Shown here: one piece after another, positions 17,387 through 64,000 of the stretch | Layout: each line of letters opens with the position of its first letter | How positions within the stretch are numbered: the stretch's first letter is position 1 | Assembly (NCBI GenBank): GCA_049325535.1 | Contig: JBMOKY010000001.1 | Location: 157,002-221,001, forward strand | Source: Patescibacteria group bacterium | GTDB taxonomy: Bacteria; Patescibacteriota; Patescibacteriia; UBA10025; JAHIVO01 | DNA: 64,000 bases | Direction: 5' to 3' | Notes under the pieces: generated by a model | What the model was told of the DNA's origin: nothing | Database searches by the model: none | The model's input: the letters and a program-made list of their open reading frames with translations, nothing else | Position numbers and translations under genes: made by a program

Positions 17387-17438
17387 TTCTATGCGGCGAC
17401 TCAAACTGCCTCATATTCAAAAACTATCGGGGAGTACA

Positions 17439-24510: not shown

Positions 24511-24511
24511 T

Positions 24512-24943: not shown

Positions 24944-24953
24944 AATATTCTCT

Positions 24954-25631: not shown

Positions 25632-25633
25632 CT

Positions 25634-27550: not shown

Positions 27551-27561
27551 TCACCATACCT

Positions 27562-28236: not shown

Positions 28237-28264
28237 CCCTCAGATTTTTTTAGCGATACGATCC

Positions 28265-29365: not shown

Positions 29366-29436
29366 TTGACAGGCAAATACGGGGCTATCTGAATTTTTGT
29401 CTCATTAATCCATGTTCTGAATTCTTATAAAACAAT

Positions 29437-42767: not shown

Positions 42768-42794
42768 ATGGTTGTTTAAAAAAATATTAGATCT

Positions 42795-43307: not shown

Positions 43308-43319
43308 CGAAGTATCAGT

Positions 43320-43354
43320 TGACTTTATGGCTAAATTATGTTACTATTAAGTGG
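43320..43354 (+). promoter_or_regulatory. candidate sigma70 promoter (TTGACT-17 nt-TACTAT) in the AT-rich region upstream of the giant-protein array
   Basis: TTGACT at 43320-43325 and TACTAT 17 nt downstream. The region also carries inverted repeats (GTTGA-N4-TCAAC, TTGCAA). Confidence 0.3.
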
Positions 43355-43473
43355 AATTTGAGCTCCGCAATGTATTGTAATTATTGCAATTAAATGTTGA
43401 TTTGTCAACAATTGTCTGAGAAAAGCATTTGCGGGAATATATAGAAAAAAGCCGGTAATTAGGGGGTATTATT

Positions 43474-47463: not shown

Positions 47464-50400
47464 TTCGGCGTATGCGCATATTGCGAATCACAATTCAACC
47501 AGTGGTCAGCATAGGTATATGTGTGCTCATCGCTGCCGGCATCATCGTGCTCGCGGCACCGGTAGTGAGCGCTGCTTGGTTTCCTCCGTCGGCCCAACCC
47601 CCAGCGGGCAATGTTTATGCGCCGCTGAATACTAGCGCCGATAGCCAGGCAAAAGCCGGTAATCTGCTGCTGGACCCATACTATAATCCGTATGGGGAAC
47701 TTCCCGAAATCAATTACCCGCTGGAAGTGCGCGGTTCGCGCAATGCGTATATCAATGATTTGACCGTCACCTCTGACGGTATACTGGCGGTGGATACGGA
47801 TACGTTGTATGTCGATGGCGGCTCCCATGGCGTGGGTATAGGACTGACTGAACCTGAGACATTACTCGATATCGCCGGTGGTCTGCTGATCGGCAGCGCT
47901 TCCAGCGGCATTACCGGTTCGGCACTGGTCACCAGCAGCTCACTCAGTTATGGAGCGCTTGGCGTTTCGCTGACCGATGGTTTGACCTCGGTGCTCGGGA
48001 CAGGCACTGGCGTGGGTGTGTATGGCCTCCATACTGCTGGCGGGACAGGAATCCGCGCGGAGAGCGTGTCAGCCTCAGGTGCAGTCGGGAGCAGTGCAGC
48101 GCCGCTTGACCGGGCAGCTCCGGTGAAAGTAGCTGGGGTATACGGGCGCGCGCTCGGACTCGGTTCGTGGGCCGGGTATTTCGCTGAACAGACCGTGACA
48201 TCTGCCGAAGCGTATGCGCACGGATTCGTACCAAATCGCCAGGGGTATTCCCAGTATCCCTATACTATCGGTTGGGAAACCAGGGAGATAACGTCGAGTG
48301 CGCGCATCCAGCCAGAGACGATATTGTATGACGGTCGGTGGGTGTGGTTGCACAATTCCGTGACCTGGGCCAATGATCCGAATATTTTATTGATTGACCC
48401 GAGTAATGGCGCCATCAGCGAAGATTTTCGCCTGGTCAATGGCAGCGGAGTGGCGGCGCATGGCATGTCCCAGATGATTTTGGCTGGCGGGTATATCTGG
48501 ACAGCGAACTGGTGGGACGATGCGTATGGAGTATCCCGCGTAGACCCGAATGACCCGACGCATACTGCTACTCATTTTGCGGTGGGAAACCATTTCGGCG
48601 GCGGAGATGATGGTGCGCTCCGATTGGCCTATGACGATTTTACCACTGGTGGGCCCTATATCTGGACGGTGAATGGACCGGATAGCGCTACTTGGGACTA
48701 CACCCTCACTCGACTACGTCCGGCTGATGGTACCTATATCAATTTCCAGCTGAATCCAGTGGGTGGCCAGTCGTGTCTGTCTTATGATTGGAATCGCTGT
48801 ATCGATGGTATCGATAATGATGGAGATGGCAACATCGACCGTGGCATCTGCAGTAATCCGTCGTACACCACACAGGCAACCTGTGAGACCAACGGCGGTA
48901 CGTGGACACCGGGTGATACAGAGTGTATCAATAATGCCGGAACTGATACGGGCAATAGTCCGACCGGGGCGTATCCGGCGGGCGACGAGCGACTGGGTAT
49001 GTATGAGCCAAACGGACCATCCGGTATTACGGTCCAGCCAAATCTCATCGATCCGACCAATCCTACGATTTGGGTATCGTTTAGCGGGGTCGTGCCCAGC
49101 AATCCGACGAGGTATGAAGGAGAAGCGATCGCGAAATTCAGCGGATTAAACCCGACTGACACCGCGCTGCAGGAGGTGTATTGTCCTGGTCCGGCGACTG
49201 AACCAGATGCCATCACCAATGGCGACGGGTACATCTGGATTGGGTCGAGCGCGCATTACTCCAAATACCAGGGGAATGATGGACTCGACCGGTTCGATCC
49301 GGTGGCAGAAACCTTTACCCATTTTCCCGCTTCAGCGGGTATAGAGCGGATCGCGTATGATGACCAGTCCGCTGGTGGGCCGTATATTTGGGGGCAGAAT
49401 TTTTGGGAGATTATGCAGTTTAATCCGGACGGTTCCATGGCGCATTTGCATAATTTGCCGGACGGAATTGCTGATTTTACATTTGATTATTCATCCGGCA
49501 ATGAGCCGTATTTTTGGGCATCCCAGTCGATCACAGGAGGTCTGAGTCGGACAGCTATAGCCGCTCCATATGACTCCATTACCTATACTCCAAAAGGGTC
49601 ATACTCTGACGACATCGTGTTTGATGGCACCTATATCTGGTCGACGAATTCGACTGCAAATACCGTGAGTCGGTACCGGGCTTCGGATGGGCAGAAGGTG
49701 GGGGATTATTTTGCCGGGTGGTATCCGCGATATATCACATTTGACGGCAGCTCGCTGTGGGTGACGCATCTGAATGAGGGCGGACCGACTGAACTCGCTC
49801 AGCTGGATGCTTCGACTGGTGAACTCATCGGTGATTATGATTATGGTGCGGTGAGTAATCCTACGGGAAATGATATTCTTTTCGATGGTACATACGTCTG
49901 GATAGCCGATTTCAACAATAATCGACTGCGGCGAATCGATCCGGCTACGTGCAGTGCCGGTGTCTGCGCCAAAACTGACATTGCGGTACCGTTTGGACCC
50001 CGCGCCATCGCTTTTGACGGTAATTCTATTTGGGCGATACAGCACTACGCTACAGGACTCGGGCGTAATAGTTTTTCTCGTATTCACCGGGATACCGGCG
50101 CCGTGCTCAATACCTATACCATCCCAAACGCGTATAACGCCGATGGGAATCTCCGTTCGTTATTGTTTGATGGCACATACCTATGGATGGGCGCGCAGTA
50201 TCGGGATGCCCAAGGAATGAGTCTCTATAAAGTACGGCCGAATGATGGATCGGTCGCCGCACGGGTCACGCTCTATAATGAGCCGGGCGTGTGTTCGGGC
50301 GGTGATCGGAATCGTCTGTACTGCACGACCAATGCCCAGTGTACCGGTGGTGGCGCCTGTTCAGCTACGGCTACAAACGTCAGTGCCCTGACATTCGACG

Positions 50401-51152
50401 GTACTCATGTGTGGGCGGTACAGGAACGCGCCAGCTATGTCCGCGAGTGCACTGACGGCAGAGATAATGACGGTGATGGATTGACTGACTACGCGGCGGT
50501 CGGTGGAGACCCGAGTTGCGCTGATAGTGACGATGTTCATGAAACTGACAGCAGTGATTTTTTCGGCACGACGACTGACATCGAGTGTGCCGACAGAATA
50601 GATAATGACGGGAACGGTTTATGTGATTGGGATGGCGCTGCTGGTTCCCCGGGCTGCAGCGGCAAACCAGATCCAGGATGTTCCGGCCCCACTGATATCA
50701 GCGAGCAGACCCGGCAGAGCGCTGGGTATCTCAGCCGAGTCAATGCGGGTACGGATCAGCGTATCGAAAGTATTTACTATGCTGCGTATTGTAATCCGAA
50801 CAGCCTGGCGTTTGACGGATCGAGCATTTGGATCAATCAGACGACAAATAACTGTGATAATTTTATCCTCCACCAGTATTTCGCGGGGACCGGCTCTGGT
50901 CAGGCGGATCTGGAGGGATTGGCGAACCTGCAGACCACGGTGCCGGGACGGTCGCAGAGCGGCAGCGCCGCCAGCTATGGAGAGGCAACGGTTGGGCGAT
51001 CACTGATGGTGACCGGTGACTTGCGTGTGGTGGAAAATGTGTGGGGTGGTAGTGCCGATGCCGTGCCTGATTTTGGGCAGTCCTGCACCGATGGAGAATT
51101 TGTCAAAGGTATTGACACGCAGAATAAACAATTACATTGTCGGCCGCTCTAA
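47448..51152 (+). CDS. giant secreted surface protein, family A member 2 (1234 aa), with propeller repeats, DNDGDG Ca-binding-type Cys motifs and the same C-terminal tag
   Basis: N-terminal SQAKAGNLLLDP and DTLYVDGGSHGVGIG, GxYG repeats, FDGTYIWSTNSTANT, CIDGIDNDGDGNID, CTDGRDNDGDGLTDY. Ends SCTDGEFVKGIDTQNKQLHCRPL. An alternative start at 47471 avoids overlap. Confidence 0.8.
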   Translation: MSTTLIRRMRILRITIQPVVSIGICVLIAAGIIVLAAPVVSAAWFPPSAQPPAGNVYAPLNTSADSQAKAGNLLLDPYYNPYGELPEINYPLEVRGSRNAYINDLTVTSDGILAVDTDTLYVDGGSHGVGIGLTEPETLLDIAGGLLIGSASSGITGSALVTSSSLSYGALGVSLTDGLTSVLGTGTGVGVYGLHTAGGTGIRAESVSASGAVGSSAAPLDRAAPVKVAGVYGRALGLGSWAGYFAEQTVTSAEAYAHGFVPNRQGYSQYPYTIGWETREITSSARIQPETILYDGRWVWLHNSVTWANDPNILLIDPSNGAISEDFRLVNGSGVAAHGMSQMILAGGYIWTANWWDDAYGVSRVDPNDPTHTATHFAVGNHFGGGDDGALRLAYDDFTTGGPYIWTVNGPDSATWDYTLTRLRPADGTYINFQLNPVGGQSCLSYDWNRCIDGIDNDGDGNIDRGICSNPSYTTQATCETNGGTWTPGDTECINNAGTDTGNSPTGAYPAGDERLGMYEPNGPSGITVQPNLIDPTNPTIWVSFSGVVPSNPTRYEGEAIAKFSGLNPTDTALQEVYCPGPATEPDAITNGDGYIWIGSSAHYSKYQGNDGLDRFDPVAETFTHFPASAGIERIAYDDQSAGGPYIWGQNFWEIMQFNPDGSMAHLHNLPDGIADFTFDYSSGNEPYFWASQSITGGLSRTAIAAPYDSITYTPKGSYSDDIVFDGTYIWSTNSTANTVSRYRASDGQKVGDYFAGWYPRYITFDGSSLWVTHLNEGGPTELAQLDASTGELIGDYDYGAVSNPTGNDILFDGTYVWIADFNNNRLRRIDPATCSAGVCAKTDIAVPFGPRAIAFDGNSIWAIQHYATGLGRNSFSRIHRDTGAVLNTYTIPNAYNADGNLRSLLFDGTYLWMGAQYRDAQGMSLYKVRPNDGSVAARVTLYNEPGVCSGGDRNRLYCTTNAQCTGGGACSATATNVSALTFDGTHVWAVQERASYVRECTDGRDNDGDGLTDYAAVGGDPSCADSDDVHETDSSDFFGTTTDIECADRIDNDGNGLCDWDGAAGSPGCSGKPDPGCSGPTDISEQTRQSAGYLSRVNAGTDQRIESIYYAAYCNPNSLAFDGSSIWINQTTNNCDNFILHQYFAGTGSGQADLEGLANLQTTVPGRSQSGSAASYGEATVGRSLMVTGDLRVVENVWGGSADAVPDFGQSCTDGEFVKGIDTQNKQLHCRPL

Positions 51153-51161
51153 TACAGAGAT

Positions 51162-53546
51162 ATGCTATACCGAATGTTAATACAATCAAGATTAGCCACT
51201 CGTATTTTTGGTGTACTGCTTGTCGTCGTCTGCGGAATGATGCTGGGCATTCCTCTAGCGCGGGCTGAGTGGCGCGAGCCGACGTTGCCCCCACCGCAGC
51301 AGGTATTTCCTGCACCACTGACCACGGGCGCTGAAAATCAGGCAAAAGCCGGATATGTATTGATCGACCCGGTGTACAATCCGAACGAACAGACGTCGCT
51401 CAATTTTGATCCGCAACGGCCACTCGATGTACGGGGTGAAGGAGGTAAATTTTCCACGCCGGCAGTCTACAGCGATGTACTCCGCGTCGATACCAGCACC
51501 TTATTCGTCGACGCGCTGGCTGATTGGGTGGGCGTCGGTACCGATATCCCGCTTGCCGGATTCAAATTGGTGGTAGATGAGGGGACGGTACAAGTAGGCA
51601 CCCCCACGCGCCCGATAGCCGGTCCGGCTGTCCGTGCGTATAGTGCTGACAGCGTGGGCCTGTATGGTGATGCCGGCGCCACTGGATCTGCTGGGGTGTA
51701 TGGATTGTCAGAAATCGCCAATGGTGCGGCCATCCGCGGGGAAAGCGCTACCGATGTCGGCGTGCGCGGGGAAAGCGCCAGCGGTATCGGGATTTATGCA
51801 GTCAGTCAGTCCCTGAATAATGCCGCTGTCTACGGTGAAAACACCAGTGGTGGCTGGGCAGGCTATTTTGAGGGGCGACTCGGCAGCGTGGCTGATGTGA
51901 TCGCTCGTCGATTCCTCGCTACCTATCCTCAGACGTCACTCGTCCCATTTAGCCATCCGCGCCGTTCAGCCGAGTATTGGGTTTCGACCGGGGAGATTGC
52001 TGGTTCATTTGAACCGAGTATGGTATTTGATGGGTCGTACGTGTGGATCGGCAATAAGACTGAAGATGCCGCCGGCAATAATGTATATAAAGTCCGTCCG
52101 GTTGATGGAGTCATCGTGGCGCGGTACCATATTGAGGGCACGCTGCCGACCATCCGATCATTGGCGTTTGACGGGCGGTATATCTGGGCTACCAGCACCG
52201 GTTCGGGTGACAATTCGGTGGTAAAATTTGATCCATCGAGCGGCCAGTCGCTGGCGATTTGCTCGACGATCAGTCCTGACCGGCCGATCGGTTCGGACTG
52301 GGGGGCAAAACCAGAATTTGGCGTTATTCATACTATCGCTGGATCGTCCTATCTCTGGACGGCGAACTGGGACGGAGGCGACGTGACAAAAATTGACTCA
52401 AATTGTCAGGTTGTCGGTGAGTATCCGCTGGGGACGCAGGGTACCGGTGTGCATCTGAATCGTCTGAATGACGCTGGGTATTTTCTGCGGCCGATAGATA
52501 TCACCGCGTCGAAAGACACTATCTGGGTACTGACCCCCTCACTGTGCGGCACGACGCCACCGGATACCACCGAGGCCTGCCGGGCGGACGCTGCCTGTGC
52601 GCCGGGTGCCTGTCAGCTCAATCCAAATAATCTCGTCGGGATCGACCCAGACACGGGCGTCGTGGAAGTTCGCTATGCCACCGGTATTTCTGATCCATGG
52701 AAGATGCTTTTTGATGGCATCTATATGTGGGTGATCTCATGGAGCGATACCGGCGGTCAAGATATTTCAAAAATACGGGTATCTGACGGCACAATCATGC
52801 CTGGCTATCCCAAGCAGCTCACCTTTACGCCCATTGCCATGGCATTTGACGGTACACACCTCTTGGTCAGCACGGCTGGCACCACGACCCATGGGGCCGG
52901 ACTGTATCGCATTTCTGTGGCCACCGACGTCATCGAAGAATTTGACTCAACCTTGTCATCAAACAGCAATGATGGAGAATCACTCTATGACGGCAAGCAT
53001 CTGTGGGCCGTGTCCGGGTGTACCAGCGGTGGAGACTGCGGCAATGGCGCCAACCGCCCGCTATTACTGACAAAAGTTTTCATCGGCGCGCGAACTGATC
53101 ACCCGGATTTGGGAACTGTGGTCCAGCTGGTCGATGCGGCCGGGACATGCTCGGTGACGACCGCTCGCCAGTGCATCTATGATTGGCACTGTCCGGGAGG
53201 TGAAACCTGCACTTCGGACGCGGCGATCCAGGACGGCAATATCCGCATTTCCGGTTCGCTGACCGTGAATCATGGGTACTGTCAGGCCGGGGCGGCCACC
53301 TATTTCAGCCGGCCGTGCACCTCCGATGCCGCGTGCAGTGATTTGGCCGGCGGACATTGCACGGGCGGTAACATGCGCATCGGTTCCGATGTTGATGCGG
53401 CCGGGAATACCTGGGCGGGGAGCGATGAAGCAGTTCCGATTGGTGATCCGGGTGCCGGGGACTGCCCGACAGACGGGACATTTGTCAAAGGCATCACCCT
53501 CGACGGCAACAGCAGGATATCGTCATTTACCTGTCGCGGGTTATAA
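51162..53546 (+). CDS. giant secreted surface protein, family A member 3 (794 aa)
   Basis: N-terminal NQAKAGYVLIDP and STLFVDALADWVGVGT. Repeats FDGSYVWIGNK and FDGRYIWATSTGSGDN. Ends DCPTDGTFVKGITLDGNSRISSFTCRGL. Confidence 0.8.
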   Translation: MLYRMLIQSRLATRIFGVLLVVVCGMMLGIPLARAEWREPTLPPPQQVFPAPLTTGAENQAKAGYVLIDPVYNPNEQTSLNFDPQRPLDVRGEGGKFSTPAVYSDVLRVDTSTLFVDALADWVGVGTDIPLAGFKLVVDEGTVQVGTPTRPIAGPAVRAYSADSVGLYGDAGATGSAGVYGLSEIANGAAIRGESATDVGVRGESASGIGIYAVSQSLNNAAVYGENTSGGWAGYFEGRLGSVADVIARRFLATYPQTSLVPFSHPRRSAEYWVSTGEIAGSFEPSMVFDGSYVWIGNKTEDAAGNNVYKVRPVDGVIVARYHIEGTLPTIRSLAFDGRYIWATSTGSGDNSVVKFDPSSGQSLAICSTISPDRPIGSDWGAKPEFGVIHTIAGSSYLWTANWDGGDVTKIDSNCQVVGEYPLGTQGTGVHLNRLNDAGYFLRPIDITASKDTIWVLTPSLCGTTPPDTTEACRADAACAPGACQLNPNNLVGIDPDTGVVEVRYATGISDPWKMLFDGIYMWVISWSDTGGQDISKIRVSDGTIMPGYPKQLTFTPIAMAFDGTHLLVSTAGTTTHGAGLYRISVATDVIEEFDSTLSSNSNDGESLYDGKHLWAVSGCTSGGDCGNGANRPLLLTKVFIGARTDHPDLGTVVQLVDAAGTCSVTTARQCIYDWHCPGGETCTSDAAIQDGNIRISGSLTVNHGYCQAGAATYFSRPCTSDAACSDLAGGHCTGGNMRIGSDVDAAGNTWAGSDEAVPIGDPGAGDCPTDGTFVKGITLDGNSRISSFTCRGL

Positions 53547-53553
53547 TTATCAT

Positions 53554-55011
53554 ATGATGAAATTTACACTCACTCATACGTATCGCCTCGGTCTGTTTAT
53601 CGCCTGCTTGTGCTTGGTAATTGCTGGGGTGGTGGCTATCGTCCTGGTATCTGATACGCAGGTCGAACCCCGGGCGGGTCTCCGCATTGACCCATCGGTA
53701 CTGTCGCACATACGAACGTACACCGACAGCACGGCTGACGATGGCGTACACACACGGATAGTGTACCCGTTGCCTCAGCAGTACCTCGATGTGACCGGCT
53801 CATATGTGCCGATAGATACCGCCATCGTGACTGACGGTGAAGCCGGATTTCAAAATGTTACTAATGGTTACCAGACACGCTTCACCATAGACGGCGGTAT
53901 GCCACGGACCACGATTGATATCCCTGGCGGGCGAAGGATTACCCTTTCTCCGGAAGTGGGAGTGTCATCCGATGCCGTTGTCACCTCTGATGTTATTTCA
54001 TATACAGGGACGACCGATGGACTGAAACTGGAACAGGAGGTCGGATTGGCATCACTGACACAGCGGCTGATGATCACATCGGGGGTAAATCCATTTCCGC
54101 TGCGCGTGGGATATGATATGACGCGGGTCTCCCTGCAGGATGCTCGATACGGCGGATGGTATGCGCGCGCCGCAGATACCGGTGATGTGGTTTTGGTCAT
54201 ACCGGAACCGATTATGTTTGAGTATATCTCTGATGAAGACCTGGATACGCAACCATCATATCTGTGGTCCGAGTTCATTGTCACTCACGACAGCGCGGGC
54301 ATGACGATCGACGTAGACGAGTCCGGTCGCGGCTGGCTCGACAGTGTCGAGGGTGAGGCAATATTGGAAATCCGCTATCAGCATCCTCTGTATGCCATGC
54401 AGCCCGGGCAGCTCTACCGTCCGGGCACGACTACTGATGATCAGATATCGAGCGATCCGCTTGCCAGCAAATATAAGGTGGGACATTTTTGGAATGTCGG
54501 CGCGGCAGGCTGTCCTTCGTGTGAAATCGAATATCAATTTAGCGGAGCGGCGAATCTATATATTGACGATGATACACGTACCATCCTGCGCCAGGCGGAT
54601 GCAGCCCATCTCGCGCTCTCCCTGCACCGGTCTGGTTCAGCAGTCGAATCAATACTTCCTGAGCAGACTGAGCTGCAGATACGATTTGGATTTGCCGGAT
54701 GGTCGCTGCTGGCGTCACCCGCTGCCGTCTGGCGGGTAGGACATGAGCTACCGATGGGTGCAGTTGTGTCAGCCGCCGCTTTGCCTACTGATCCGCCCAA
54801 AACGTTTCCGAATTGCGCCGCTGATCCGGATTCGTGCCGGGTGGTGCTGAAATTTCCCTCACCCGAGACGATTGCTCGCTCCGGCCATCTACAGTTGTAC
54901 CTCGACCCAGGTGAATTGTTTGCTCAGGAACCGGGGAAGTTTTATGGTCTCTATCTATTCGGTCCGGAATCGACCCAAGCGCCACATCTGGTGATTAGCT
55001 ACACTCCATAA
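53554..55011 (+). CDS. TM-anchored surface protein, family B (486 aa), paralogous to the N-terminus of the next giant ORF
   Basis: Start MMKFTLTHTYRLGLFIACLCLVIAGVVAIVLV. The ORF track's longer frame begins inside the upstream gene. DPSVLSHIRTYTD...PQQYLDVTGSYVPIDTAIV aligns with DPLVLAHTSNV...AQQYLTNDPGVFAPIDSSII of the 55013 protein. Confidence 0.7.
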   Translation: MMKFTLTHTYRLGLFIACLCLVIAGVVAIVLVSDTQVEPRAGLRIDPSVLSHIRTYTDSTADDGVHTRIVYPLPQQYLDVTGSYVPIDTAIVTDGEAGFQNVTNGYQTRFTIDGGMPRTTIDIPGGRRITLSPEVGVSSDAVVTSDVISYTGTTDGLKLEQEVGLASLTQRLMITSGVNPFPLRVGYDMTRVSLQDARYGGWYARAADTGDVVLVIPEPIMFEYISDEDLDTQPSYLWSEFIVTHDSAGMTIDVDESGRGWLDSVEGEAILEIRYQHPLYAMQPGQLYRPGTTTDDQISSDPLASKYKVGHFWNVGAAGCPSCEIEYQFSGAANLYIDDDTRTILRQADAAHLALSLHRSGSAVESILPEQTELQIRFGFAGWSLLASPAAVWRVGHELPMGAVVSAAALPTDPPKTFPNCAADPDSCRVVLKFPSPETIARSGHLQLYLDPGELFAQEPGKFYGLYLFGPESTQAPHLVISYTP

Positions 55012-55012
55012 T

Positions 55013-58000
55013 ATGTCACGTCGCACCATCATCATCATACGCATCTGCGGCGCTCTCGCCATTCTCGGCGTGCTGGCGCTCGGCGTGCTGCTGGCTATAT
55101 TCAGTCAGCAGGATCATACGGTGCGGAAAGCCGATCCGGAGCAGGTGGCGGATCCTCTGGTGCTGGCCCATACGTCAAATGTCGCCGCCGAACGGCGCAA
55201 TGAAGACGGTACGGTGTCAGTGGAATATTCTCTCTTTGCTCAGCAGTATCTGACGAACGATCCGGGTGTTTTCGCGCCGATTGATTCATCGATTATCCCT
55301 TCGTACCGGCCGGAATACGACTATGAGAATACGACCAACGTGATGCATACGTATTTCAGCGACGACAGCAGCCGGGAGGACTTTATCGTGCATACGGTAC
55401 CCGGCGGACGCCGGGTGTCATTCCGGTACGTCGGAGCGCAGCCGGGGAAGTGGGACGTTGATGGCAGCATGGCCACGTTTGCGGATCTGTTTCCGGGCGT
55501 GGACGCGGTGTACACTATCCGGAATGACGCGCTGATTGAGGAGCTGGTCGTCCGGGATGAAGCCACCGCTCTGGCGCTGGGATCAGTCACGCAGGAAATC
55601 AAGCTCGATGGGCTGTACTATAAAGAGCAGGCAGACGGATCGATCACTCTCCATGATGCGGAGACGCGCCATGGCGTATTTGTCATTCCGGCGCCACTGA
55701 TGTACGAATTGGATTCATCCGAGCCGCTGATGTCCGATAAATTGCACTATGACATCGAGGAGGTCGATGACGCCACTATTATCCTGCATAAAGTCATCGA
55801 TCCAAAGGGAAAACTATGGATGCAGGCGGCGAAGTATCCGATCGTCGTCGATAATTCGTACCTGGGCTGGTTTGACAATAACATGTTTGGTGAAGCGCGG
55901 CGCAGCCGGCCAAACGGATCGAGTGCGTATTCATATACGTTCACGTCTCCTGGTTCAGATTTCAATCGGACTGGCACCTGGCGGACTGATCCGCCTCAGA
56001 GCTGTTCGTCATGCTATTCGTTTTGGGATTACCGTTATTATTATAGCTTTATTACGGGCGTGAATGAGATGCCCGGTAACTATAGTTTTGATACCAGCCA
56101 GGTCATCGGCGGCAAACTGTGGCTGTACGGCTACCGCTCGGGCGGCGTGGTCAATCAGGTGGAGCTGCCGACCAATTATGTGGTCAATGTGTACGCCGGG
56201 CCAAACATATGGGCAAATATTTCTGACCCGGCGGCGCTGTGGGGGTATACCAGCGTAATGAATTTGACGTACCAGTTTCCGGTAACCACCCTGCCCAATG
56301 CCGCTACCCAGAACTGCTATGGCAATCCCTCATCATGTGAAATCGCCATCCCCTTGGATATCAGCGATTTGTCGCTGTCGCAGACCCCGACTGGCCGTAC
56401 CCAGTTCATATTGGAAGATACCTGGAATACGTATTATCAAAATGGATTCCTCGGCATGTGGACGCTTCGTCAATTTTTCAGTACTACGCCTCCCTATCCC
56501 CGGCTGGAGATCATCTATCTGCCCCGGCCGGTGATCCGCGTGGATCCGCAGGCGGGAACGAGCACCACATCACTGGAAGTGCAGATAGATGATGATTTTA
56601 CTGATGAGACCGAATACCGGCTCGAGCGCTCCCTGGCCGGCTCCAGTGGGCCCTGGACCCAAATCTGCGCCAGCATGTCTACCGGCGGTTCAGGATCGTG
56701 CGGTACAGGCATCACCTATGATTGTACCGGCGTCACCGTCGCGGGAACTACCGGATACTGCAGTATCATCGACAATCTGAGCCAGAGCAGCGGATTGACT
56801 CAGTATTCTGACCGGCATGTCTGGTACCGCGCCCGCGTCCAGCGGACTGATCCAGTACCCGGTGAATCATATGTTTCGAGCTATAGCAATGTCGAACATG
56901 ACTATACATTGGCGGCGCTGGCCACGAGCGCTCCGTCAGTGACCGTGGAGTCGTGGTCATCGATCAAGATATGGCCAGCGTCTGGCATGGGGGATGAATA
57001 CACCAATCAGCGGTCGTATTTTGCCTCCGATGCCGAGCCGACCAAATATTGTATCGGGTTATGGACGTATCCCGCATATCCGAACTGGAATTATTCCCCA
57101 ACTAGTGATATTCGCTATGTTGACGATCCGCCATCGGCAAATAGCACCGTCTATACCAATGTTCCGAGCGGGACGAGCAGCGGACGAGATTTGATCAATA
57201 ATGGCACTTTCCCGGGTGATCCGCGCTGTCTTACATTTTACCAGTGGGTGTGGTTCCCCTTGATCAATCCTTTCTATGCGTCTGGTGAGTGGACCGACTA
57301 CGCCTACCTCAAACCGAATGCACTATATGCGGTCGGCACCTTCTCCCAAAACACCCGGGACAATACGGTCAATAATCCTGGCGTACAGAATTTTGTGGAA
57401 ATCTACACGCGGGCGCGCACTCCGTCTGCTCCAAATAATCCCATAGGCGCCAATAATACCAGTACCACGCTACAGATCGCGCTCAATAGCACGCCTCAGT
57501 CCAGCCCGACGACGGCGCCCTGGACCAATCCAGCGTCAACCCAGTACAACATACAAATACAGCAGGGGGGATCGTGGTATTATCTATCCACTGCCGGCGG
57601 CAGTTCACGATTAGGCTCGCCCCAATGGGGTGACAGCACCGCTTGGAACGGTACTACCGGACGCACCATCACCGGACTCAGTCCGGCTACCTGCTATAAT
57701 TTCCGGTCTCAGTCCAGAAATGCCGATGGGGTAATCGGTGAAACCGCGGCGGCGCAGTGGTCAAATACTGCCCAGTACTGCACTCCGCTCAGTCCGCCGT
57801 CGGCACCTGACGTGCAGTGCGGCTACAGCACTGATATCGGTGTGGGCTACTACTGTGACGTGACTCTCCACGATACCGCTAATCCGTCGCCGCCATACTT
57901 TTACAAAGTACAGCGGTCGTACAATAATTCTGTTTGGACGAATATCAACGGCGGCACCCTGACCAACGGTACGCCCCTGACATACATCAATACCTATTGG

Positions 58001-61000
58001 TCGCAGACAGTACAGAACAATGGCACTATTCGTTTTAGGAATTTATCATGCAGTGCCGGGGTGAACCGGCTGTATTTCCGGGTGTTTGCCTCCATCAGCG
58101 GAAGCGACAGTGATACGTCCATTTCTACGGCATCACCGGTCCGGGTGGACGTGTTGCCCCCGTGCCAGCCTGGCCAGCCTACCTATGCCGGTCCAAAAGG
58201 ATATGATTTCATCAATTGGAACTGGACGGCGCCCGCTACCATCCAGGCCATCACCGATCGAGATTTCTATGATTTTAGTCTCGGTCTGTATGCCAATGCC
58301 GGACTAGCTAATCCCTGGACGCAAACCGGCCTGCTGCCGAATACTGCTCATCGAGTTATGGTGCGCGCGTGTGACGCGGGCAATGCCAATAATGGTTTTG
58401 TCGAACGGTGTGGCCAGTGGTCTGTTTACTCTATATATAATTACACGTATGCAGCGCCGCCAAATGTCGATGTGTCGTGTGATTATGGCAGCGCGCTGGA
58501 TGATTATTTCTGCCGGGTCACCCTGACAGAAGCGTCGCCCCCGAATCCAAGCAGTCCCATTACTTCATATAAAGTAGATCATTGCAATGGCACCACTGCT
58601 TTTGATTGTGAAGGATTTGGAGCAACCTGGGCTTCCGTCGTGCCGCCGGGGTACTTTGCTCCTACTGGGTGGTTCAGTAAAAATTGGAATACGGAAGTCA
58701 CATTTACGTTTTCGGAAAGTAATCTGAGTTTCCAATCGTTCATGTCGTGCCAGCCGGATCATACATACCAATTTTTCCGGGTGTCGGTCAGGAATAGTAA
58801 TGGTGAAATAGAGCCGCTCTTCATCATAGGCGGGCCGTATGATACGCTGCCGCCGTGCCAACCGCAGAATCTCAACCATACGAATCAGAATCTGACCAGT
58901 TTGCGCTGGACGTGGACGGCGCCGTCGGGCGGGGAAACGGTATCCCAGTACACCGGCAGCACTTCCGGTTGCGGCACCAGTACCACGCCCTATACCACGC
59001 CAAACGCGTACCGTGACCAGAGTGGCACGCAGATCAATGCGCTGTGCACCGTGGAAGTCGGAGCACAGGATGCCCGGTCCCGTGTCGGCAGGAAAGTGAG
59101 CACCTCGGCGTATACATCGATCCAGGCGGTGACGGACATTTTATTTAATGATGTCCGAACAAATGAAATATCTATCCAGGCGAATTCTTCCACGGGAATA
59201 TTTTCAAATCTCGGAGCCGGATCAGCCGCCACGGGCGGCCCGGCCGGCATTCGATTCCGCAATAACCCGGTCGGCCCGGGCGGTGGTGGCGGCACATCAT
59301 TTACCTCTTGGGCAAATTCTGTGGCCGCAACTGACAGCGGTTTGTCGGCAAACCGTAACTATTGTTATCAAGCCAGCTCGCGCAATGGCAATGGAGATTA
59401 TAATCCATTATCACCCAATAATTACCAGCCAGTACCCGCTCAGTGCCGCTATACCCTGGCGGCTGTCCCGACTGCGCCGTTGCTGATCCGTGCCGAGGAT
59501 GGCACCTCGGCAAATATCACCGTGCGGACCAATGACGGCAATCCGCAGAGCAGCCCGGCCACGCAGTACGCGCTCTGCGTGACTAAATACGCGGCAGATG
59601 GGACGAAAGAGTTCGAGCGCTATGCCCGGCAGAATGGCAGCATCGATTTCTCCGGCCCGAGTTTCCAGTGCGCTTCTGGCGACGACTCGGGGCATTGGGG
59701 CACTTTTGACCAGTGGGGGGACAATAACGGCGTGGACATCGCGCTTGACCCGTCGAGTAAATATGATTTTGCCCTGAAAGCGCGCAATGGCGACGGGCCT
59801 ATCATCGAAAGTTCTGGTTGTGAAGAGGGTAATACCTGTATCGAGACGACGTTTGGTCCGAAGGCGACGTTGTTCCTGGTGCGGAATAACATTGTCGGTT
59901 GGGCTTGGTCATCGAATCTCGGCTGGATATCTACCAATTGTCTGAATCTCTATAATGTGACGGGATTTGGATTCAGCTGCAGCTCGGCCGAGGACTGGGG
60001 CGTGAATACGTATTTTGAAGCGTCGCGTAATATCAATCCGGTGGGTGGCTATGCCTGGGCGTCTTCCGGGCGGACCATCCCGGCTCAGCGCTGGACTGAC
60101 ATTGCTCAGGTGAATACGGTCCAGCCGGCCCAGACGAATTCGCATACGTCGGCGGACACAAATGTATTTGTCGATTCGTTCGGCCGACCACACCGTATCT
60201 GGGCGCAAGCCTGGCCTGGGTCAGGCGACAATCAGGATATTTTCTATCAGCGGTGGAATGGCCGCGAGTGGGTGACAGCGGGCGGGGCACTCGGCGCGGA
60301 AAATATCTCACAAACAGTAGCGGCATCCAGCCAGCCGACCATCGCATTTGATAACGATGAAAACCCGCATATCGCCTGGGTTGAGGGGACAAATGTCTGG
60401 GTGCTGCACTGGAATCCGACGGCCAATAATGGATTTGGCGGATGGGTATCGCCAACGGGTACGCTGTATCAGCCTGGATTTACTGATGTAAACACGACGC
60501 GGATCAATGTCTCGTCCATTACCGGAGTTGGGCCGGTCGATGGGCATCCCGCGCTCGTGGTTGACGCGGCCAATCATGATCATGTGGCTTTAGCCCACCT
60601 GACTGGTGGTGTGTACTCGGTGTACTATACGGAGTGGAGTGGCAGTGACTGGACGCGACCGGGCGGCGCGGCTGGATATGATGATATCAGCGGGGCATTG
60701 ACGTCGGTCGATCCGCAGCCGTCACTCGACGTGGAGCAGGGTTCGGGATATCCTTTTATCGTCTGGAGTGATGCCGTCAATCAGATTTTATACCGGCGTT
60801 GGGATGGTGCCGCATGGACAGCGGCGACGACCGTCAACGGCAGCACGACCAATGTGCAGAGCCCGAAGATTGTCGTCGATCATACCAATATCCCCCATAT
60901 CGCCTGGGGCAGCGCCACCGGCGTCCGCTATATTCGCTGGAATGCAACGGCTGGGGCCTGGGAATCGATTGATGGCGCCATGCCCGCGGATACCAGCCTG

Positions 61001-64000
61001 AATTATGATGTAGAACTCGGTACAGCTCGTACCTCAATCGGTTTGCGGGTGGATGCCCAGCGCCAGCCGCACCTCATCGGGTATGCCAGCGGAAATCCAC
61101 AGAAGATTTATTATCGCACCTGGGACCCCGCGGCAAAAGCCGCCGCCGGTGGATGGGTGACGGTTTCGGGCGCCACGGGGGCGGGACTGAACGACGAGAA
61201 TGTTGAGGTCGCCAGCCGGAGCGCTGCCGACATCCGCGGGGTTACATTTGATATTAACGGAGAAGGCGATCCATTTGTCATGTGGAGCGAAAATAGCGGC
61301 AGCTCGTGGGACGTATTTTATCGGTCATGGGATTCCGGGTACGGCGAGAGCGGCGCCGGGTGGATCAGTTTCAATACCAATGTCTGCGCCAATAACACGC
61401 AGAAGGGGTGCGCTGATAATTTTGACTGTAGTGGCGCGGCATGTATCGAGAGCGCTGGTACCCCGCCCCAGACGACCGACTGGACCGTGGCATGGGCGGA
61501 TATCGGCACGGCTCTCGGGTCAAATGAGGTCCAGGATTTCGTGTACGATGACGTGACTCCGGGTGGGCCGTATTTCTGGGTGACTTTTGACACGACTGCG
61601 GACAGCATCCAGCAGGTGCGAGCCAGTGACCTGACGGTGGTCGATACCATCGATCTCAATCCGTACGGAGCAGATGACGTAGCCGGTATCGAACTCGATA
61701 CCGTCACCGCCGGCGGGCCGTATCTGTGGGCTACTGCCTGGGAATCGAATCAAGTATTGCGCATACGTATAGCCGATCAGGCGGTGCTCAGTCGGACTCT
61801 GTCATCGTGTTTCAATGGTGGCCTCGGGGAGTATGATACCGATTGCAATCCGAATGGAATCGTCTTTGACCCGGTGACGGCGGATATCTGGGTGACCAAT
61901 CAGGAAGGGGGCAATCTCCACGGCAGTATCAGCCGGATCGAACCGACGACTAATACTGAATTAAACTGCGACGGCACTGTCCCCGGCGGCTCACCAAATC
62001 ACTGCGGCATCTGCTCTGATCCGGCTCATACCACCGAGAGTGCCTGTATCGCCGCCAATCCGGCAAATAACTGGTGGGGAGTGGGGAATAATCCGGTGAG
62101 TCTGCAGCTCGATCTCACCACCCAGTCGCTCTGGACAGGGGATCTGAATGGCCGCCGGTTTGCCAAACTCGACGTGACCACCGGTCAGGTGACGGAATTG
62201 AGCTTGCCTGCTGGGTATGCATATGCGATTTTCGGCCATGCCCGTGTCGGAGCAAATCTCTATGTGCCCCTGACTTCGTATTCCACTCATCCGCTGGGTG
62301 AGTTTGGCACCGGCGCTATCATGATCATCGATCCGGTGACGGCCACTATCATTGATGTGGTGGACATTGGGTTTCCTCGGTATCCGCAGGGGATCGCCTA
62401 TGACGGCAGATATCTCTGGCTTTCCAGCTGGTTTACCACGGGTACGTGTACCAATGACGCTACACTATATTGTAGCGATGGTGGCGATAGTAACGACGGC
62501 GTATGTTCCGGCGGGACCAATAACGGCGCCAGTTGTTATTTCGATTATGGATGTCCGGGCGGGGCGTGTATCCGGCCGGACTGCAGCAGTGTCGGCGGAG
62601 GGTGCAGCAATTCGCAAACCCGCATCTTCCAGTATGAGGCTTCGAGTCTGAAGCTCGTGGATTCGTACGAGGTGTCTCCGACGGATTGGCACCGGTCATA
62701 TAAAGTACTTTTTGCCGATGACGCCATTTGGGTAAATAGTTTGGTCGGATATTTGGCAAAAATTTCACTGGGTACCAGCGAGGGAATGGGATATGGGTAT
62801 TGCTATGATCAGGCAGGCGTGAACGGCAAACGCTACGGCCAGTGTTCCGACGGGGTGGGCGATTGTGTCGCCGATATTGATTGTGCCGCAGGTGAAAATT
62901 GTATCTATTATACATGTGCCAATCATGCCGATTGCCCAAATTATGTACCGACGGGAGCCGATGAGCAGTGCAAAGCCATCGCTACCGCCAGCTTTAGCGG
63001 TATCACCCGGGAAGTGTCCGGCTGGGGTCGCATCCTGTCACTGAAAGCAGCTGGCGAGGCGCAGGGATTTGATGACTGGGGCTGGATCCGATTGGGCGGG
63101 CCATATGACGACCATCAATCCCAATCAGGACAGTACACGCTGTCCGGTACGGAGATTGATTCGCAGCAATTCCTGGGTGACCCGGATGTCAATCCGACCG
63201 ATGTGCAGCTATACACGCTGTTTGGTTGGGGATGGCAGGGTATGCTTATTCCTTCGTCACGAAATAATTCGGTGTGGCTGCCGCATATGAATATCACTGA
63301 AACTGGCAGGGCCGCAGACGACACGCAACGTAATTATGGTTCCCCATCTATTGTTATTGACTCCATCGGTGATCCGCACATGGCCTGGTCAGAATACGAT
63401 GCGGCTAACGCGTCATATGACATATATTATGCCCGGCAGAAACGGGGCAGATGGGAGACCGTAGCCGGTACGGCGTATGTGCCCGGCACCACGGATCCTC
63501 TCGCGTCTGGATTGAACGTGAGTAATGCCAATGGGACGGACGTCTTCTGGCCGAGCCTCAAACTAAATGCAGCTGATGAACCGTATCTGGTCTGGCAGCA
63601 GGGAGGTACCTATGCTGATGGAGGTGAGGTGTATTTCATGCGTTGGGACAGCGCCAGCAGCGGCTGGACCACCCCGGAAAAAATCGATGATGGTGGGACG
63701 CCTGATTTGGCGCTGGATCAAGCAGCCAATCCCCATGTGGCCTACCGCCATGGTACCGGAGCGAATCTGCATGTGTTTTATCGAGTCAGATTGGCCGGCG
63801 CGTGGGTAGATCCTGATGGTGGAACAGATGATCAGCAGGTCGACGTCGGAGCAGTCGGTGGTGCGGCTGGTTTTCCGAAAATTGCCGTGACTACCGGAAC
63901 TCCCGGTATTCCTAGTGTGGTTTGGGTACATGGTACCGGAATCTACTACCGTCAGTGGAGCGCAGCTTCGTCCACATGGCTTACCGCCAGCGGCGATGCA
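55013..64000 (+). CDS. giant TM-anchored surface protein, family B, 3'-partial (>=2996 aa). It has FN3-like modules, YVTN-like propeller repeats and a repeated ~50-aa PHIAW...YYRW module
   Basis: ATG at 55013 lies 1 nt after the stop of the upstream gene. I translated frame 2 by hand from 55013 to 64000 and found no stop. The supplied ORF track lists no frame-1 or frame-2 ORFs at all in this span, presumably because no stop occurs inside the window. N-terminal TM MSRRTIIIIRICGALAILGVLALGVLLAIF. Motifs INWNWTAPATIQAITDRDF, LRWTWTAPSGG, AYDGRYLWLSSW, DENPHIAWVEG and HTNIPHIAWGS. Confidence 0.75.
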   Translation, partial: MSRRTIIIIRICGALAILGVLALGVLLAIFSQQDHTVRKADPEQVADPLVLAHTSNVAAERRNEDGTVSVEYSLFAQQYLTNDPGVFAPIDSSIIPSYRPEYDYENTTNVMHTYFSDDSSREDFIVHTVPGGRRVSFRYVGAQPGKWDVDGSMATFADLFPGVDAVYTIRNDALIEELVVRDEATALALGSVTQEIKLDGLYYKEQADGSITLHDAETRHGVFVIPAPLMYELDSSEPLMSDKLHYDIEEVDDATIILHKVIDPKGKLWMQAAKYPIVVDNSYLGWFDNNMFGEARRSRPNGSSAYSYTFTSPGSDFNRTGTWRTDPPQSCSSCYSFWDYRYYYSFITGVNEMPGNYSFDTSQVIGGKLWLYGYRSGGVVNQVELPTNYVVNVYAGPNIWANISDPAALWGYTSVMNLTYQFPVTTLPNAATQNCYGNPSSCEIAIPLDISDLSLSQTPTGRTQFILEDTWNTYYQNGFLGMWTLRQFFSTTPPYPRLEIIYLPRPVIRVDPQAGTSTTSLEVQIDDDFTDETEYRLERSLAGSSGPWTQICASMSTGGSGSCGTGITYDCTGVTVAGTTGYCSIIDNLSQSSGLTQYSDRHVWYRARVQRTDPVPGESYVSSYSNVEHDYTLAALATSAPSVTVESWSSIKIWPASGMGDEYTNQRSYFASDAEPTKYCIGLWTYPAYPNWNYSPTSDIRYVDDPPSANSTVYTNVPSGTSSGRDLINNGTFPGDPRCLTFYQWVWFPLINPFYASGEWTDYAYLKPNALYAVGTFSQNTRDNTVNNPGVQNFVEIYTRARTPSAPNNPIGANNTSTTLQIALNSTPQSSPTTAPWTNPASTQYNIQIQQGGSWYYLSTAGGSSRLGSPQWGDSTAWNGTTGRTITGLSPATCYNFRSQSRNADGVIGETAAAQWSNTAQYCTPLSPPSAPDVQCGYSTDIGVGYYCDVTLHDTANPSPPYFYKVQRSYNNSVWTNINGGTLTNGTPLTYINTYWSQTVQNNGTIRFRNLSCSAGVNRLYFRVFASISGSDSDTSISTASPVRVDVLPPCQPGQPTYAGPKGYDFINWNWTAPATIQAITDRDFYDFSLGLYANAGLANPWTQTGLLPNTAHRVMVRACDAGNANNGFVERCGQWSVYSIYNYTYAAPPNVDVSCDYGSALDDYFCRVTLTEASPPNPSSPITSYKVDHCNGTTAFDCEGFGATWASVVPPGYFAPTGWFSKNWNTEVTFTFSESNLSFQSFMSCQPDHTYQFFRVSVRNSNGEIEPLFIIGGPYDTLPPCQPQNLNHTNQNLTSLRWTWTAPSGGETVSQYTGSTSGCGTSTTPYTTPNAYRDQSGTQINALCTVEVGAQDARSRVGRKVSTSAYTSIQAVTDILFNDVRTNEISIQANSSTGIFSNLGAGSAATGGPAGIRFRNNPVGPGGGGGTSFTSWANSVAATDSGLSANRNYCYQASSRNGNGDYNPLSPNNYQPVPAQCRYTLAAVPTAPLLIRAEDGTSANITVRTNDGNPQSSPATQYALCVTKYAADGTKEFERYARQNGSIDFSGPSFQCASGDDSGHWGTFDQWGDNNGVDIALDPSSKYDFALKARNGDGPIIESSGCEEGNTCIETTFGPKATLFLVRNNIVGWAWSSNLGWISTNCLNLYNVTGFGFSCSSAEDWGVNTYFEASRNINPVGGYAWASSGRTIPAQRWTDIAQVNTVQPAQTNSHTSADTNVFVDSFGRPHRIWAQAWPGSGDNQDIFYQRWNGREWVTAGGALGAENISQTVAASSQPTIAFDNDENPHIAWVEGTNVWVLHWNPTANNGFGGWVSPTGTLYQPGFTDVNTTRINVSSITGVGPVDGHPALVVDAANHDHVALAHLTGGVYSVYYTEWSGSDWTRPGGAAGYDDISGALTSVDPQPSLDVEQGSGYPFIVWSDAVNQILYRRWDGAAWTAATTVNGSTTNVQSPKIVVDHTNIPHIAWGSATGVRYIRWNATAGAWESIDGAMPADTSLNYDVELGTARTSIGLRVDAQRQPHLIGYASGNPQKIYYRTWDPAAKAAAGGWVTVSGATGAGLNDENVEVASRSAADIRGVTFDINGEGDPFVMWSENSGSSWDVFYRSWDSGYGESGAGWISFNTNVCANNTQKGCADNFDCSGAACIESAGTPPQTTDWTVAWADIGTALGSNEVQDFVYDDVTPGGPYFWVTFDTTADSIQQVRASDLTVVDTIDLNPYGADDVAGIELDTVTAGGPYLWATAWESNQVLRIRIADQAVLSRTLSSCFNGGLGEYDTDCNPNGIVFDPVTADIWVTNQEGGNLHGSISRIEPTTNTELNCDGTVPGGSPNHCGICSDPAHTTESACIAANPANNWWGVGNNPVSLQLDLTTQSLWTGDLNGRRFAKLDVTTGQVTELSLPAGYAYAIFGHARVGANLYVPLTSYSTHPLGEFGTGAIMIIDPVTATIIDVVDIGFPRYPQGIAYDGRYLWLSSWFTTGTCTNDATLYCSDGGDSNDGVCSGGTNNGASCYFDYGCPGGACIRPDCSSVGGGCSNSQTRIFQYEASSLKLVDSYEVSPTDWHRSYKVLFADDAIWVNSLVGYLAKISLGTSEGMGYGYCYDQAGVNGKRYGQCSDGVGDCVADIDCAAGENCIYYTCANHADCPNYVPTGADEQCKAIATASFSGITREVSGWGRILSLKAAGEAQGFDDWGWIRLGGPYDDHQSQSGQYTLSGTEIDSQQFLGDPDVNPTDVQLYTLFGWGWQGMLIPSSRNNSVWLPHMNITETGRAADDTQRNYGSPSIVIDSIGDPHMAWSEYDAANASYDIYYARQKRGRWETVAGTAYVPGTTDPLASGLNVSNANGTDVFWPSLKLNAADEPYLVWQQGGTYADGGEVYFMRWDSASSGWTTPEKIDDGGTPDLALDQAANPHVAYRHGTGANLHVFYRVRLAGAWVDPDGGTDDQQVDVGAVGGAAGFPKIAVTTGTPGIPSVVWVHGTGIYYRQWSAASSTWLTASGDA

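Follow-up and report, generated by a model that had tools for sequence, protein, structure and literature searches.

Bacteria that belong to the Candidate Phyla Radiation (CPR, or Patescibacteria) are thought to live attached to other microbes. To our knowledge, only in a few cultivated Saccharibacteria have the molecules been identified by which a host is chosen and held. Here we analyze 64,000 nucleotides from a Patescibacteria group bacterium (assembly GCA_049325535.1, contig JBMOKY010000001.1, positions 157,002 to 221,001), referred to below as the window. The window ends inside an open reading frame (ORF) that starts at nt 55013 and is still open at the edge, raising the question whether this is a real gene and, if so, what its giant product does. 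The protein has an extracellular-type modular architecture, a single N-terminal helix and strict linkage to the genes of a type IV pilus machine. We consider it probable that it forms an anchored fibre for host adhesion and acts in concert with the type IV pilus.

The giant open reading frame is under purifying selection

Frame 2 reads from the ATG at 55013 to nt 64000 through 2,996 sense codons. A previous inspection of the letters (the sequence-only reading) had claimed an open frame from manual translation, and machine translation finds no in-frame stop. The closest in-frame stop upstream of the ATG is the TGA at 54992, and the last stops of frames 1 and 3 are at 63913 and 63888. Considering the base composition of the window, a stop is expected in 4.24% of codons and the probability of an open run of 2,996 codons is ~10^-56.4. 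The ORF listing contains no entry in this frame after 55011, because it omits ORFs that run off the end of the source; this rule, which the earlier reading had guessed, is stated in the description of the tool. With 8,988 nt inside the window, the gene is the largest present, as had also been proposed, ahead of the 5,910 nt of the runner-up (ORF 107-6016). Tracks that drop open-ended ORFs hide precisely the largest genes.

A word-indexed protein search retrieved P0001, a protein of 3,893 residues that is 98% identical across the entire query. It comes from an independent assembly (Logan SRR14787580, contig L001, 1824-13505), and L001 is collinear with window positions 53190-63998 over 10.8 kb at 97.0% nucleotide identity. 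The 2,996 codons in common differ by 236 synonymous and 79 non-synonymous changes and by zero indels, giving a ratio of non-synonymous to synonymous divergence (dN/dS, Nei-Gojobori) of 0.096. The giant ORF is under strong purifying selection; from the low dN/dS and the lack of indels it therefore codes for a protein, bearing out the earlier impression of a coherent product. A non-coding or artefactual ORF is excluded by the open frame, the purifying selection and the independent 97% copy. Based on L001, ~897 codons lie beyond nt 64000 and the stop codon is ~2.7 kb past the window edge, in agreement with the earlier estimate of a gene longer than 9 kb. We conclude that the window carries, at 55013..64000 on the plus strand, the first 2,996 of ~3,893 codons, that is, the 5′ three quarters of a real, intact gene of ~11.7 kb. 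The full protein is expected to end ...YDGRVVANTPPGLADFTKALPIYQRVVP.

The divergence between the two strains is uneven along the gene. Compared with L001 (1824-10811) in steps of 200 codons, dS ranges from 0.014 to 0.355, with values of 0.014-0.06 at codons 1-600 and 1001-2000 and of 0.17-0.36 at codons 601-1000 and 2001-2996. Codons 601-800 are the most diverged stretch (dS 0.355, dN 0.045). This mosaic suggests recombination tracts inside the giant gene. We also considered a diversity-generating retroelement for codons 601-1000 and rejected it: dS is raised there as well (0.22-0.36), omega is 0.13-0.15, and Pfam scans of 34 window ORFs revealed no reverse transcriptase. For this stretch, recombination is the simpler explanation. 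An origin from a phage or mobile element was rejected too, as there are no relatives of the giant protein in IMG/VR and the GC content is uniform in the gene and its surroundings.

The giant gene directly precedes type IV pilus genes

The DNA downstream of the giant gene can be read in seven distinct loci: L001, L003 (the same as L004), L005, L006, L007, L008 and L009. In all seven, pilM is the next pilus gene and lies on the same strand as the giant gene. The downstream order in these loci is PilM (PF11104, E ~1e-40), a PilN-like protein, PilO, a protein of ~310 residues with a weak fn3 match, and PilB. Further along, a response regulator and PilC are encoded in L003 and L009, and a pilin in L009. 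The spacing between the giant gene and pilM amounts to 0 nt in L007, 6 nt in L001, 16 nt in L005 and 36 nt in L008; L003 has a 23S_rRNA_IVP gene (23230-23604) inserted between the two.

The gap between pilM and the PilN-like gene is 100-300 nt in all loci. In L001 this gap contains a strong terminator-like hairpin (14687-14708) whose 9-bp stem has 8 G-C pairs and leads into a T-run, and then a promoter-like site (14746-14774). These two elements suggest that the giant gene and pilM may share one transcript, with pilN onward on another.

Several features of these loci are worth recording in their own right. Two distant loci have a gene for the four-helix-bundle protein 23S_rRNA_IVP directly next to the giant gene, on its upstream side in L002 (1868-2296) and on its downstream side in L003, and an IS200-like transposase gene lies just upstream of the giant gene in L003 (9204-9731). 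The PilN-like proteins are 581-744 residues long, compared with the usual ~200 (L001 14935-16680, L003 25001-27076, L005 13982-16096, L007 14906-17140). The one in L001 has the typical ‘MAINLLP’ N-terminus, then a proline-rich, low-complexity linker of ~380 residues before its transmembrane (TM) helix.

N-terminal helix and N-domain

A single TM helix spans residues ~6-30 (55028..55102, plus strand, as are all features of the giant given below). In a Kyte-Doolittle scan with 19-residue windows, those starting at residues 3-16 score >1.6; apart from them, just three borderline windows near 2434-2436 exceed this value. The TM anchor of the sequence-only reading thus corresponds to the one strongly hydrophobic N-terminal segment of the protein. 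A K-rich n-region and a hydrophobic stretch of ~23-25 residues are conserved in more than 20 family members. Given this length, the conserved juxtamembrane motif and the fact that no cleavage site is conserved, the helix is probably an uncleaved signal anchor that remains in the membrane permanently. It does not resemble a class III prepilin signal: the N-terminus, MSRRTIIIIRICGALAILGVLALGVLLAIFSQQ, is without the G-F/E5 motif, and N_methyl (PF07963) has no match in Pfam or NCBIfam scans of the giant protein.

The helix is followed by N-domain A (residues 32-300; 55106..55912; alignment A6), which is all-beta and carries the motifs YENTTNV and YYKEQ.DGS, and by N-domain B (residues 300-525; 55910..56587; alignment A2). 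Recognizable conservation of N-domain B is limited to an orthologue from Kerfeldbacteria, described below, and to the 485-residue product of the gene immediately upstream (53554..55011, plus strand), which consists of a TM helix and N-domains A and B alone. Residues 12-446 of the giant align by blastp with residues 112-526 of the ORF 53272-55011 (22% identity, E = 7e-11), confirming the paralogy suspected earlier, and the paralogue ends precisely at the end of the giant's N-domain (alignment A2). Its TAA stop is followed by one base and then by the ATG of the giant gene. Translation of the two genes appears to be coupled, and the 485-residue protein may serve the giant's N-domain as a partner in the membrane. 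Proteins of ~480-590 residues recur in the exhaustive search: P0004 (482 residues, a close relative), P0009, P0018 and P0032.

That search, performed with HMMER and the N-domain profile, retrieved 3,220 proteins at E<=1e-3, of which 45 reach E<=1e-30. Several distant relatives score 26-28.7 bits against DUF7948 (PF25778; cut-off 27), which likewise has an N-proximal position in them; P0002, an orthologue of the giant, reaches 20.4 bits, and residues 32-300 of the window protein have no DUF7948 match in the Pfam scan. The distant relatives bear other C-terminal parts (PT-HINT, Gly_rich_2, Lcl_C). From their scores near the threshold, the N-domain is therefore read as an outlying branch of a domain that is widespread and functionally uncharacterized.

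Structure prediction with AlphaFold2 used alignments of 3-4 sequences (the window protein, P0001, P0002 and P0003). The mean predicted local distance difference test score (pLDDT) of the N-domain is 49. Approximately 190 residues (~92-281) are predicted with confidence (pLDDT 65-89), all as strands, and N-domain B is of low confidence. Foldseek found no match to the N-domain model in the PDB at E<=0.001, a model too low in confidence for the search to be informative.

A modular stalk, two propellers and a conserved C-terminus

Residues 505-1612 consist of about nine beta-sandwich modules altogether. The first part (505-800; 56525..57412) is beta-rich and without a Pfam match; the second (801-1612; 57413..59848), delineated by internal blastp repeats and Pfam fn3, contains seven modules and is termed the stalk. 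Four stalk modules are fn3-like (801-924, 1047-1144, 1278-1369 and 1483-1612). They alternate with a second type that contains Cys (925-1046 and 1145-1277), and there is one further module at 1370-1482. The sequence-only reading had described FN3-like modules with a W-x-W-T-A-P motif. Both copies of the motif were located, WNWTAP at residues 1069-1074 (nt 58217-58234) and WTWTAP at residues 1299-1304 (nt 58907-58924), so that it is present in two of the four fn3-like modules. Pfam fn3 (PF00041) scores 29.2 bits on the whole protein against a gathering cut-off of 25, with the best stretch at 833-908, and the remaining modules are sub-threshold at 16.7-19.7 bits. Our stalk module profile hidden Markov model (HMM) is circular for its four seed modules.

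The stalk leads into a conserved linker module (residues 1613-1700; 59849..60112) with the pattern ‘ATLFLVRNN.VGWAWSS..GW.S.NCLN...INP.EGYAWS.SG’, which is 49-63% identical across 7 family members, compared with ~30% for the protein overall. It is followed by propeller 1 (1714-2117; 60152..61363), in which the blade motif P.(I/L).(V/L)D...PH(I/V)AW....(Y/F)Y..W.g..W recurs. A blade HMM built from eight blades finds seven here, including three non-seed blades (independent E-values 2.6e-8, 2.8e-11 and 1.8e-7), and the region has a weak BNR_4 match of 19 bits. In the full-length P0001 the same HMM finds fourteen blades, seven at 1714-2117 and seven between 2776 and 3176, and therefore two seven-bladed beta-propellers are indicated. 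The window contains blades 1-4 of propeller 2 (2776-2996; 63338..64000); blades 5-7 lie past its end. BNR_4 (PF15892) scores 27.5 bits on the segment 2755-2996 (cut-off 27.3), covering only profile positions 227-266, and 16 bits on the whole window protein.

Between the propellers lie two regions of different character. Residues 2118-2590 (61364..62782) form a lineage-variable insert with Cys-rich loops and a second propeller-like repeat type. It falls in a gap in P0002 (alignment A1) and is present in the Kerfeldbacteria orthologue. Part of it (2173-2519) matches the product of ORF 47448-51152 by blastp (E = 8.5e-6), and there are weak matches to Glu_cyclase_2 and DUF6454. Next comes a conserved Cys-rich module (2591-2745; 62783..63247) with 45-53% identity and 7 invariant Cys (alignment A10), followed by ‘DDWGWI.LGG.YDD ... 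SQ.FLGDPDVNP..V.LY..FGWGW’. The linker and Cys-rich modules are 45-63% identical to those of six other family members. Both contain ‘GW.W’, and we asked if they are homologous repeats; this was rejected (hhalign probability 1.1%).

Beyond the window, P0001 residues 3228-3893 comprise a core (GIGW.EF.PAGAL..., IDGDLE.NA, MPS.A.IV.GN.Y), two repeated modules and a tail. The tail of P0001, PL.VSGLF.A.GY.FDRKYTK.L...E.I.YDGRVVANTPPGL.DF..LP.Y.RV.P, is nearly invariant; the family consensus is YDGRV.ANTPPGL.DF..LP.Y.RV.P for the tail and GIGW.EF.PAGAL...IDGDLE.NA for the core. Conservation peaks in the C-terminal 60 residues of the protein, and the tail motif occurs once per locus, in the giant protein alone. 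Identity is 43-64% in the linker, C-terminal core and tail, compared with ~28-31% overall, and lowest in the stalk and propellers. The AlphaFold2 model of the C-terminal 709 residues has a pLDDT of 41. The in-window protein contains 61 Cys, and its composition is rich in G/S/T/A/D/N and poor in K/M.

The NCBIfam scan of the giant protein and P0001 gave nothing meaningful, and phmmer found nothing significant for the whole protein against all PDB chain sequences. A propeller of the PilY1/Neisseria_PilC type is absent from Pfam scans of the window protein, P0001 and segments at E up to 1. On P0001, neither NCBIfam nor Pfam matches a C-terminal sorting domain (LPXTG, PEP-CTERM or that of the type IX secretion system), and the hydropathy scan shows no hydrophobic segment at the C-terminus. 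Pfam finds no PT-HINT, RHS repeats or toxin domain in the window protein or P0001, and no catalytic domain is recognizable in the window protein. By these results, the giant does not qualify as a type IV pilin, a PilY1/PilC adhesin, a surface protein with a sorting signal or a polymorphic toxin; one of its modules passes the fn3 cut-off.

A family with fixed ends and a variable middle

The exhaustive profile search identified ~22 giants of 2,404-5,073 residues in which the N-domain and the C-terminal tail are both present. Among the matches listed, the tail is shared by 22 of the 25 proteins of at least 2,400 residues, with the N-domain at residues ~40-50. Orthologues at 28-46% identity include P0002, a Kerfeldbacteria protein (CP181398.1), proteins from four distinct metagenome loci and one from a Patescibacteria metagenome-assembled genome. 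The sole relative in GTDB species genomes, and the closest named one, is a 4,400-residue ORF of Candidatus Kerfeldbacteria MKparc4 (CP181398.1; Patescibacteria group, Parcubacteria group), which is 28% identical end to end. Another relative is an NCBI ‘hypothetical protein’ of a ‘Patescibacteria group bacterium’. The word-indexed search, capped at 8,000 candidates, misses true relatives: it gave 2 matches for the whole protein, 1 for the C-terminal 709 residues and 0 for the N-domain alignment, not even P0001.

By these alignments the giants can be defined as one family whose ends are fixed and whose middle varies. Among the additions particular to single lineages are a Peptidase_S8 domain in P0002 (125 bits) and propeller repeat inserts, and the Kerfeldbacteria orthologue has a stretch that resembles LamG/ConA in a by-eye reading only. 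The end of the P0002 gene is overlapped in L002 by an ORF (17159-18739) that continues the same repeat series, with 67% identity to P0002 residues 4754-4942. The 4,945-residue call for P0002 probably stops early because of a frameshift or assembly error, and the actual protein is then longer. The missing C-terminal tail in P0002 is thus uninformative, as the repeat series continues in the overlapping ORF and the contig ends before the tail.

The family is unnamed in Pfam, NCBIfam and NCBI records, and a literature search found no paper that describes it. The type of protein is known, namely a giant surface adhesin of an ultra-small episymbiont encoded beside type IV filament genes; the family is undescribed. 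It can be recognized by its fixed ends, its fixed internal linker modules and its constant position before pilM, with a middle that varies by lineage and is mosaic between strains.

A probable role in host attachment

We hold a role in host attachment to be most likely because the family always sits directly before type IV pilus assembly genes. Published parallels, discussed below, also support such a role alongside type IV filaments: the giant proteins of Vampirococcus, PilX2 of TM7x and the giant genes of Omnitrophota. In the model that we favor, the one N-terminal helix would hold the giant in the cytoplasmic membrane. A fibre would extend outward from it, consisting of the membrane-proximal N-domain, the Ig/fn3-type stalk of about nine modules and the two propellers split by Cys-rich modules, with the conserved C-terminal core and tail at its far end. 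The giant gene would head the set of pilus assembly genes, that is, pilM, the long pilN, pilO, the gene of the fn3 protein, pilB, the response regulator gene, pilC and the pilin gene. The variable propeller and insert region may bind the partner cell, and the conserved ends may contact the cell's own envelope or the pilus machine. High conservation in the linker, C-terminal core and tail and low conservation in the stalk and propellers fit conserved self-contacts and variable contacts with the target. If this model is correct, the giant is a target for cryo-electron tomography, proteomics and host-range prediction in a large uncultivated group.

Several observations weigh against it. The pilus genes lie outside the window and their presence is deduced from the 97%-identical contig L001, and synteny proves linkage, not joint function. 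Retention of the anchor is deduced solely from the length of the helix and the absence of a conserved cleavage motif. Pfam and NCBIfam give weak or borderline matches only (fn3, BNR_4), no domain with a demonstrated binding function was identified in the giant protein, and profiles of six conserved modules, the linker and Cys-rich modules among them, have no match among PDB sequences. Both AlphaFold models are of low confidence because the alignments contain only 3-4 sequences.

A further-reaching proposal, which we put forward tentatively and do not expect to hold, is that the family is an unrecognized integral component of the type IV pilus in a CPR clade formed by Kerfeldbacteria and relatives, a protein of ~4,000 residues with conserved ends that dock the machine or fibre and a variable propeller and insert region that decides which host cell is recognized. 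If true, it would supply a host-specificity determinant that can be read from sequence for uncultivated CPR bacteria.

The most interesting alternative is that the giant is a pilus-tip or priming adhesin like PilY1 or PilX2. The helix would then either be removed or insert at the base of the pilus, the C-terminal core and tail would serve to dock the protein on the minor-pilin tip complex, and the protein would be carried outward on the pilus and would not stay on the cell body. Consistent with this idea, the gene belongs to the pilus locus in all 7 of the 7 cases, and the giant combines a non-PilD N-terminal signal with seven-bladed propellers, as PilX2 and PilY1 do. Its most conserved C-terminal 60 residues, found once per locus and only here, look as a docking element is expected to look. 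However, no PilY1/PilC propeller is matched in Pfam, PilY1 genes normally accompany minor pilin genes and do not precede pilM, and the hydrophobic stretch of ~23-25 residues, with its juxtamembrane motif and no conserved cleavage site, has the look of a permanent anchor. A pilus-tip cargo of 3,900 residues is also without precedent, and we regard this alternative as unlikely.

The locus also allows the giant to be a substrate or envelope-spanning partner of the filament machine: acting like the piston of a type II secretion system (T2SS), the machine would push or thread it through the wall and S-layer, or the giant itself would be a conduit that replaces a missing secretin. Giant genes of Omnitrophota are generally preceded by T2SS- or type IV filament-like loci. 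No secretin gene is found among the genes seen in these CPR loci, the membrane-proximal N-domain is conserved, and the PilN-like proteins are unusually long. Against these points, the giant brings a Sec-type N-terminal helix of its own, a T2SS would find no outer membrane to cross in monoderm CPR cells, and there is no sign of oligomerization or of a ring-forming domain, which makes such a partner quite improbable.

The borderline BNR_4 matches raise the question whether the giant is instead a platform for enzymes that degrade the wall or glycans of the host, with sialidase/BNR-type propellers and catalytic lineage-specific inserts. The Peptidase_S8 domain of P0002 (125 bits), the LamG/ConA-like stretch seen by eye in the Kerfeldbacteria orthologue and the proposal that giant proteins of Omnitrophota digest cell walls point in the same direction. 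However, the window protein has no recognizable catalytic domain, its BNR_4 match spans only ~40 residues of one blade, and the enzymatic inserts are lineage-specific and outside the conserved core; a mainly enzymatic role is very improbable.

The least probable explanation is a structural protein of the surface or S-layer that is next to the pilus genes by inherited gene order without functional coupling. Synteny could be partly phylogenetic inertia, given that the loci all stem from a single part of the CPR tree, and three other large secreted proteins are encoded in the same cluster. However, the synteny is kept down to 28% identity while insertions (IS200, 23S_rRNA_IVP) and neighbors change, and the giant-pilM junction measures 6-37 nt in four loci.

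Neighboring genes and the rest of the window

Two large secreted proteins, of 1,234 residues (47448-51152) and 794 residues (51162-53546), both on the plus strand, are conserved upstream neighbors of the giant: orthologues are encoded upstream of it in L003 (212-6691 and 6737-9079), L002 and L008. A third large secreted protein, of 1,329 residues, is encoded on the same strand at 43474-47463. The five genes from 43474 to 64000 are tightly packed, with gaps or overlaps of 1-16 nt; the values are 9-16 nt among the three genes for secreted proteins and 7-16 nt around the conserved pair. A search for internal terminators in 42700-56000 gave no excess over chance (12 found, compared with 8.8 +/- 3.3). 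The 1,329-, 1,234- and 794-residue proteins have in common a mature N-terminal motif after the signal peptide, W.(E)P..PP..N...P(L/I)(N/T)....Q.K.G, and a C-terminal end, ‘C..G.FV.GI.......CR(P/G)L*’.

The content of the window is Patescibacteria-like, with a cluster resembling a type IV secretion system (T4SS), RadA, RecG, a Clp ATPase and riboflavin genes, and several other very large secreted proteins are encoded as well. The T4SS-like cluster (23140-32168) is of the CPR type. It encodes a TraG/VirB4-like P-loop ATPase (25634-27550), a protein with a T4SS_pilin domain (PF18895; 28211-29365) and another that combines this domain (PF18895) with an SLT lytic transglycosylase domain (30702-32168), plus several unannotated ORFs.

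ORF 107-6016 encodes 1,969 residues with CBM_4_9 and type I dockerin domains. The adjacent ORF 6003-10787 encodes 1,594 residues without a Pfam match, and its N-terminal part appears hydrophobic by eye. Together with the giant and its three upstream neighbors, these proteins of more than 750 residues take up roughly 31 kb of the 64 kb. At 12224-16802 there are three tandem genes (540, 537 and 449 residues), whose sole recognizable domain is a C-terminal PEP-utilizers mobile domain, and a separate 316-residue PPDK_N (ATP-grasp) gene is found 5 kb from this trio (22181-23131). The four genes look like an unusual split or expanded arrangement of the phosphoenolpyruvate synthase/PPDK type.

Comparison with known systems

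PilY1/PilC is the type IVa pilus-associated adhesin of Pseudomonas, Neisseria and Myxococcus. Like the giant, it is a large non-pilin encoded with pilus genes, has a Sec-type N-terminal signal and not a prepilin signal, and combines a seven-bladed propeller with an adhesive part that varies and another part that is conserved. The two differ in that the giant has no sequence match to PilY1/PilC, is ~four times longer and has two propellers and a long beta-sandwich stalk. In addition, the giant is encoded before pilM, in the machine operon and not in a minor-pilin operon, and its helix anchor is probably kept.

Within the CPR, PilX2 of TM7x (Nanosynbacter lyticus, Saccharibacteria) is likewise encoded in a pilus locus. 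It pairs a non-PilD signal with a heptabladed propeller, and TM7x depends on it to bind its host efficiently (PMC11623550). Compared by description, PilX2 is the size of a minor pilin with a single C-terminal propeller, whereas the giant has ~3,900 residues and many more modules. Vampirococcus lugosii encodes giant membrane proteins of 1,392-4,163 residues that were proposed to recognize and attach to the host (PMC8080830). Again by description, these resemble the giant of the window as CPR proteins that are membrane-located and multi-domain (fibronectin, propeller/WD40-type, PKD). They belong to another CPR lineage, and a fixed position at a pilus operon is not reported in that paper.

The giant genes of Omnitrophota are conserved neighbors of T2SS- or type IV filament-like loci (bioRxiv 10.1101/2023.11.21.568195). 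They, too, are very long, mostly unannotated genes of ultra-small, probably predatory or episymbiotic bacteria. Omnitrophota are another phylum, diderm and with a gspD secretin, and their genes are far larger (at least 25 kb); there the giant gene follows the secretion locus, whereas here it comes before pilM. The association of giant genes with type IV filament machinery, earlier reported for Omnitrophota, is extended here to the CPR.

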